Origin: an uncultured Syntrophorhabdus sp.
Lineage (GTDB): Bacteria; Desulfobacterota; BSN033; UBA1163
Direction: 5' to 3'
Assembly (NCBI GenBank): GCA_964638215.1
Contig: CAZXBI010000001.1
Coordinates: 3,709-45,490, forward strand
Length of the DNA: 41,782 bases
The notes beneath the pieces are model-generated. The model saw only the letters and a list, made by a program, of their open reading frames with translations, searched no databases and was not told the origin of the DNA. Shown here piece by piece: positions 17,943-18,341 of this stretch. The position numbers and the translations under genes are program-made. Position 1 is the stretch's first letter. Every line of letters starts with the position of its first letter.

Positions 17943-18341
17943 ATGGGGATGAATCAGAGAGAGCAGTTTGCATGCATAGGATGTTCCGTATCTAAAGTAG
18001 ATGCCCTCGATAAAGTCCTCGGCAAAGCCGTTTATGCAGAGGATATCTCTTTGCCGAACATGCTCTATGGACGTGTGTTGAGGGTCGGGGTTCCTCACGT
18101 CCTCATCGAGGAGATTGATACCAGCAAGGCCAAAGCGATGAAAGGTGTTGTCTGCGTATTGACAGCCAAAGATATCCCCGGAACGAACCGTTATGGCATT
18201 GCGATCTTGGACCAAGAGGCCTTGGCAGAGAAAAAGGTCCGCTTTGCTGATGAGGAGATCAAGAGAGGAATCTCCGGCAATTTGTGCCGATGTACGGGGT
18301 ATGTTAAGATCATCAGTGCCATCCAGGGCGTTGTTAAATAA
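17943..18341 (+). pseudogene. Chimeric remnant: N-terminal ~100 codons of an XDH-family Mo large subunit fused in frame to the last ~25 codons of a 2Fe-2S small subunit
   Basis: Residues ~15-100 closely match the N-terminus of the 38360 large subunit (DALDKVLGKAVYAEDIS.PNMLYGRVLR.G.PH..IEEIDTSKAKAMKGVVCVLTAKDIPG.NRYGIA). The tail [25 protein letters not shown] is the C-terminus of a CoxS-type subunit. The junction is near 18250. Confidence 0.75.

Follow-up and report, generated by a model that had tools for sequence, protein, structure and literature searches.

A 132-codon open reading frame in an uncultured Syntrophorhabdus sp. joins, in frame, the N-terminus of a molybdenum-hydroxylase large subunit (L) to the C-terminus of a 2Fe-2S small subunit (S). 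The window that we analyzed (41,782 nt) also contains three sets of molybdenum-hydroxylase genes, and we think it very likely that this ORF is the remnant of a fourth set, an L-M-S operon (M is the FAD subunit) that was a paralogue of set 3 and that lost about 3.3 kb in one illegitimate deletion. The ORF is homologous to set 3 in two parts; these parts lie in the order of the operon; the reading frame ends at the stop codon of the small subunit; the junction is reproducible; and the chimera has an excess of amino-acid replacements over its intact paralogues. From these observations we infer the mechanism of the deletion and the product's lack of function.

A large-subunit head and a small-subunit tail

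The coordinates of the chimeric ORF, its two parts, set 3 and the flanking genes are in Table 1. Codons 5-101 of the chimera are the N-terminus of a large subunit of the xanthine dehydrogenase family. The earlier note on this DNA had reported that this head resembles the large subunit that starts at 38360 (L3), and the alignments agree: amino acids 5-106 match residues 8-109 of L3 without gaps at 75% identity (BLASTP against the window's own proteins), and the identity over amino acids 5-101 is 78% (tblastn). The head is only 41-44% identical to L1 or L2, the large subunits of the other two sets. In Pfam, residues 27-106 match PF01315 (Ald_Xan_dh_C) at positions 2-84 of 110. The head also matches positions 1-97 of large-subunit models of about 760 amino acids from NCBIfam, and its best match in the PDB is to residues 5-98 of 3HRD_A (E = 7e-20).

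A change near nt 18250 to the extreme C-terminus of a small subunit had been noticed as well, and this too is correct. The small-subunit alignment starts at 18249, and Pfam, NCBIfam and the PDB all identify the tail as the end of a small subunit. S3 itself runs off the end of its contig (C1), whose last 55 nt overlap exactly with the reverse complement of another contig (C269), which completes the gene. Nucleotides 18249-18343 align with the final 94 nt of the completed S3, stop codon included, at 76% identity; of the encoded residues, 26 of 30 are the same, and the stop is at the same position. Amino acids 88-132 are less similar to the C-terminal ends of S2 (51% identity) and S1 (46%). PF01799 (Fer2_2) matches residues 92-128 with the latter half of its profile only (positions 38-75 of 75). 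Similarly, the tail corresponds to the final 45 or so positions of NCBIfam's small-subunit models, which are about 150 amino acids long, and it matches residues 109-151 (of 160) of 3HRD_D and residues 108-148 of 1RM6_C in the PDB.

In a tree of the 97-residue head, the chimera lies inside the set 3 clade (support 89/80). Its sister is not resolved within that clade, so the tree fits duplication in this genome and acquisition alike. Sets 1 and 2 (41-51% identical) fall outside the clade that the chimera and set 3 share.

Table 1. Features of the window that bear on the chimeric ORF
Feature	Coordinates	Strand	Remarks
SBP2, LivK-type periplasmic binding protein, upstream flank	16622-17788	+	Pfam Peripla_BP_6, 5.8e-66
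Chimeric ORF, L head and S tail	17943-18341	+	132 aa; read as pseudogene remnant of a fourth L-M-S operon
L-derived segment, codons 5-101	17955-18245	+	a/b hammerhead domain, truncated; 76% nt and 78% aa identity to L3 38381-38671
Near-identical patch to L3	~18008-18070	+	29-nt exact run in a 76% background
Putative deletion junction	18246-18253	+	codon 102 (GCT) assignable to neither parent; GATGA common to both alignments
S-derived segment, last ~30 codons of a 2Fe-2S small subunit	18249-18341	+	26/30 aa as in S3; homologous stop
SBP3, LivK-type periplasmic binding protein, downstream flank	18387-19553	+	Peripla_BP_6, 7.5e-68; 68% nt identity to SBP2
L3, intact paralogue nearest to the chimera's head	38360-40660	+	766 aa
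M3, FAD subunit of set 3	40671-41534	+	287 aa; Pfam FAD_binding_5 and CO_deh_flav_C; counterpart wholly absent from the chimera
S3, 5' part, cut by the contig end	41632-41782	+	continues on contig C269; full protein 154 aa

The proposed deletion

The earlier note had assigned the order L-M-S to sets 2 and 3, and the gene content, as judged with Pfam, bears this out. The same order, followed by an M20-family peptidase, is found at every readable locus of the set 3 clade: at this genome's own set 3 (where the peptidase is encoded beyond S3 on contig C269), in a genome from the same genus (G007:C199), in another from the same class (G028:C93), and in a metagenome contig (L096, Ga0187779_10002249). 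Because all members of the clade are L-M-S, a single deletion of about 3.3 kb accounts for the chimera. More precisely, joining codon ~102 of L to codon ~124 of S would remove 3329-3332 nt from an operon with the layout of set 3, which matches the single loss of roughly 3 kb that had been suggested.

The chimera's head corresponds to the first gene of an intact paralogous operon and its tail to the last, with order and orientation as in that operon; the interior, with the cofactor-binding parts, is missing. Both head and tail are nearest to the same set, and at the nucleotide level both are about 76% identical to it. Equal divergence is what we would expect if a single L-M-S paralogue was the parent. 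Together with the homologous stop codon, these observations support the earlier reading of the ORF as a deletion scar.

At the junction, the alignment to L ends at 18253 and the alignment to S starts at 18249, which leaves room for a microhomology of at most ~5 nt (GATGA). This points to illegitimate recombination or slippage rather than to homologous recombination between repeats. We propose that the parent was a fourth molybdenum-hydroxylase operon, similar to nicotinate dehydrogenase like its paralogue set 3, and that one deletion would have run from about codon 102 of L to a point some 30 codons short of the end of S. The deletion would have been independent of homologous recombination, with little or no microhomology, and the two ends would have met in frame by chance (1 in 3), giving the ORF of 132 codons.

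In fusion pseudogenes that arise by deletion in bacteria, the ends of two genes have come together with little or no microhomology, the genes between them have disappeared, and constraint is later relaxed. The chimera does not differ from such pseudogenes in anything essential and happens to be in frame. The instance is new, but a pseudogene remnant is an ordinary kind of object, and the chimera is not a new kind of protein.

Substitution history

Over 126 aligned codons, the dN/dS of the chimera against L3 and S3 is 0.08-0.10, with saturated synonymous sites (dS of 1.35-1.6). A fragment that had been dead since the duplication would give a dN/dS of about 0.5. So the pieces sat in working genes, and purifying selection acted on them during most of the time over which they diverged.

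The more recent history seems to be different. With the orthologue from G007 as the outgroup, the lineage of the chimera has 19 private amino-acid replacements, versus 3 for L3 and S3 (chi-square 11.6; 126 codons are a small sample). The chimera has changed at 6 positions that are invariant in 10 other members of the clade, while the intact genes have 0-4 such changes. Also, in the tree of the 97-residue head, no member of the clade has a longer terminal branch than the chimera (0.27, versus 0.067 for L3). All of this fits a later relaxation of constraint. Were every one of the 19 changes neutral and later than the deletion, they would still come to only ~0.065 per non-synonymous site, less than a tenth of what the chimera's branch has in synonymous divergence. 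This suggests that the deletion came late relative to the duplication.

Searches for the intact operon and for other chimeras

No similar chimera turned up in 40 relatives, in the genomes of GTDB species, in JGI metagenomes, or in a set of 5.8 billion proteins. These searches yielded only orthologues of set 3, loci with the order S-L that match in reverse order, and fragments that are frameshifted or at the ends of contigs. Two proteins (P0014 and P0022) contain both Pfam domains, and we rejected them as second chimeras because they are read-throughs with the domains in S-to-L order. Similarly, many apparent matches to residues 12-128 in the GTDB and JGI searches were S-L ordered loci, with the match to the tail before the match to the head.

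We also looked for an intact L-M-S set between orthologues of SBP2 and SBP3. None was found in the 40 relatives, the GTDB genomes or the JGI metagenomes, and the island is not syntenic in the relatives. The bis-MGD gene downstream of SBP3 did not reveal synteny either, as its orthologues in G008 and G014 have different neighbors. As the ancestral locus was not found, we can only infer that the fourth operon once lay at exactly the site between SBP2 and SBP3.

Alternative explanations

The source is a fragmented metagenome-assembled genome (677 contigs, 89% complete), and contig C1 itself breaks within S3. So we considered that the 5' end of a real fourth L might have been joined to the 3' end of its S during assembly, with about 3.3 kb collapsed. 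But the identical join is present in three assemblies, from at least two sequencing runs. Besides the deposited contig, two Logan contigs extend across the junction with 100% identity to the window: one of 29 kb from SRR13723394, which matches positions 11943-24341, and one of 2.1 kb from SRR13723396, which matches 17287-19381. The exact protein of 132 amino acids is on record from both NCBI and Logan contigs. Furthermore, a k-mer assembler requires a shared repeat at the join, and no 31-mer from 17789-18386 recurs elsewhere among the genome's contigs. The only 25- to 29-mers shared with the rest of the genome are at 18009-18037 (a 29-nt run in common with L3), which is 200 nt from the junction, so we rejected mis-assembly through a repeat. 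The missing parts of L4, M4 and S4 are not on any contig of the bin, either. Given the identical junction in assemblies of two runs and the lack of recurring 31-mers, an artefact seems very improbable.

If the junction is real, the chimera might still not derive from the deletion of a resident operon: a fragment could have been inserted from elsewhere, or the chimera could mark the joint where an S-L locus was duplicated in tandem. In the family, S and L are commonly adjacent (a large number of loci match the tail and the head in reversed order), but the nearest clade is uniformly L-M-S. Also, a duplication joint would be flanked by the head of S and the tail of L, and both are absent. No syntenic intact locus is known, and the flanks of the chimera have no homology to the flanks of set 3, both of which would favor such an origin; however, an old fragment without function should have a dN/dS near 0.5, not 0.1. 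We consider such an origin to be unlikely. It is a bit less likely, in our view, that the chimera has been co-opted as a functional small protein and is kept by selection, for instance as a mimic of the L/S interface or as a modulator of other hydroxylases. The ORF is intact, it lies on the same strand as its neighbors with tight spacing, and a Shine-Dalgarno-like sequence (GAGAGGG) lies just 5' of its two ATGs. By themselves, the absence of any stop codon or frameshift and the low historical dN/dS would be compatible with selection on the chimera. But the genes' long history before the deletion accounts for the low dN/dS, and at positions that are otherwise invariant, replacements are in excess. 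Furthermore, both domains are truncated within their folds, and in none of the collections that we searched does the chimera occur outside this strain. We therefore favor a non-functional remnant of a fourth L-M-S operon.

What the product lacks and how it compares to known proteins

Set 3 is complete (766 + 287 + 154 amino acids), while the chimera retains about 100 + 30 codons, without the parts that bind molybdenum, FAD or the first 2Fe-2S cluster. According to Pfam, L3 has both molybdenum-cofactor domains (MoCoBD_1, PF02738, and MoCoBD_2, PF20256), and the chimera has neither. Even the a/b hammerhead domain (PF01315) is incomplete, as its last quarter is missing. On the small-subunit side, the N-terminal plant-type ferredoxin domain (PF00111), with its four cysteines, is present in S3 and its relatives and has no match in the chimera. 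A complete PF01799 domain has both a C-x2-C and a C-x-C motif; the chimera keeps the CRC without the CGFC of S3 (QCGFCTPG), so the second cluster has lost two of its four cysteines. The FAD subunit is missing altogether. Having lost both molybdenum-cofactor domains, the FAD subunit, the plant-type 2Fe-2S domain, and half of the ligands of the second cluster, the chimera cannot be a hydroxylase.

Among proteins of solved structure, nicotinate dehydrogenase from Eubacterium barkeri (NdhL/NdhS, PDB 3HRD) is the best match for the head and among the best for the tail, but this likeness is at the level of the family only: the chimera is a fragment and not an enzyme, and no substrate is implied for the enzyme that was lost. 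The large subunit of set 3 is a single ORF in this genome and in metagenome contig L096 (770 amino acids). In G007:C199 (L013 11472-13768) and G028:C93 (L014 11725-14006), it is split into two abutting ORFs of 437 + 328 and 430 + 330 amino acids, respectively. These split subunits (~430 + 330 amino acids) resemble NdhL/NdhM.

Some natural proteins also have S and L modules in one polypeptide, as the chimera does, such as the selenium-dependent xanthine dehydrogenases (TIGR03311) and the Desulfovibrio-type aldehyde oxidoreductases. However, these have S before L, with complete domains, while the chimera has L before S, with both truncated, and it does not belong with them. Its head matches positions 157-244 of TIGR03311, after the Fe-S part of that model. 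Since the natural single-chain members are ordered Fe-S and then molybdenum, the chimera copies no known architecture.

Two other proteins are more similar to the chimera in where they are cut. P0011 (124 amino acids, from three JGI samples) and P0003 begin with large-subunit heads of the same clade, which break off no more than about 10 codons from the point where the chimera's head ends, and they continue with unrelated sequence. In contrast to the chimera, their tails are not the C-termini of small subunits, and both their organisms and their contexts are different. P0011 (L185 6001-6375, L186 890-1264, L187 81-455) breaks between KVRYVGD and LEEE and is followed by unrelated genes; it has 6 private changes at invariant positions. 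In P0003, the large-subunit head is fused to kinase-like sequence.

Expression and significance

The chimeric ORF may still be transcribed and translated along with its neighbors on the same strand. Scans for promoters and terminators around it gave nothing above shuffled sequences, and no Rfam families were found in 16000-20000. An antisense ORF (17907-18371) and an ORF in the upstream spacer (17789-17932) have no matches in Pfam, and we read both as shadow ORFs; in relatives (G007 and G028), the homologous genes are likewise shadowed by antisense ORFs.

If the chimera is expressed and retained, it would pair the N-terminal surface of L with the C-terminal helix of S, and, as a mimic of that interface, it might titrate or regulate the assembly of the three remaining hydroxylases. 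We view this as a long shot, at very low odds. If true, it would be a new gene that was born from a deletion.

In annotations, the ORF should be marked as a pseudogene remnant and left out of any count of hydroxylase subunits. Our proposal implies that the island once had four molybdenum-hydroxylase sets, two of them of the nicotinate-dehydrogenase-like type of set 3, and that the loss of one set came late, compared to how old the duplication is. It adds a small datum on how catabolic paralogues turn over in an uncultured anaerobe, and the chimera opens no long-standing question.

Flanking genes and exchange between paralogues

The chimera does lie between two paralogous binding-protein genes, as had been noted, since both neighbors match Peripla_BP_6. 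The homology between SBP2 and SBP3 begins 16 nt 5' of their start codons (16606-16621 versus 18371-18386), so their ribosome-binding regions were duplicated along with the genes. The earlier note had taken this arrangement to suggest active remodelling of the island by recombination among repeated modules. Our results do not support this. The junction has at most ~5 nt of microhomology. When the window is compared to itself, the binding-protein paralogues are 66-71% identical at the nucleotide level, the chimera is 77% identical to L3, and nothing is more recent. And the surroundings of the chimera are unlike those of set 3: the spacers (17789-17954 and 18345-18386) showed no homology to the flanks of set 3, and no remnants of M4, above shuffled controls.

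One short stretch is much more similar to L3 than the rest of the head is. The ~70-nt stretch of near identity that was reported earlier is real (6 mismatches in 71 nt), although its position in L3 was off by one (it is at 38424-38494, not 38425-38495). The best window of 22 codons has 5 mismatches (permutation p = 0.005), and the exact run of 29 nt is also longer than expected (p = 0.02 for the run length). Synonymous sites in the patch are almost unchanged, against a saturated background, and only here does the chimera have an exact 25-mer in common with the rest of the genome. Judging by its sequence, the patch is plausibly a short gene-conversion tract, from or to L3, and it would be the sole hint of exchange between the paralogues.

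The surroundings of set 3 vary as well. In G007:C199 (L013 6933-15141), an SBP3-like binding protein and LivHMGF are directly 5' of the set 3 orthologue. In the window, LivF and L3 are separated by set 2 (L2-M2-S2) and a flavoprotein gene (36747-38321), which look like an insertion relative to G007.

We also noticed that nucleotides 17921-17952, which are the 22 nt upstream of the chimera and its first 10 nt, match positions 33-64 of contig C588 at 30 of 32 nt (BLASTN with dust off, E = 2e-6). On C588, the match is inside a GcvT-like ORF and is in frame, as LFSER(G/E)KM(G/R)M. The matching sequence is purine-rich and of low complexity. The similarity may be due to chance, or it may be a third piece of the mosaic.
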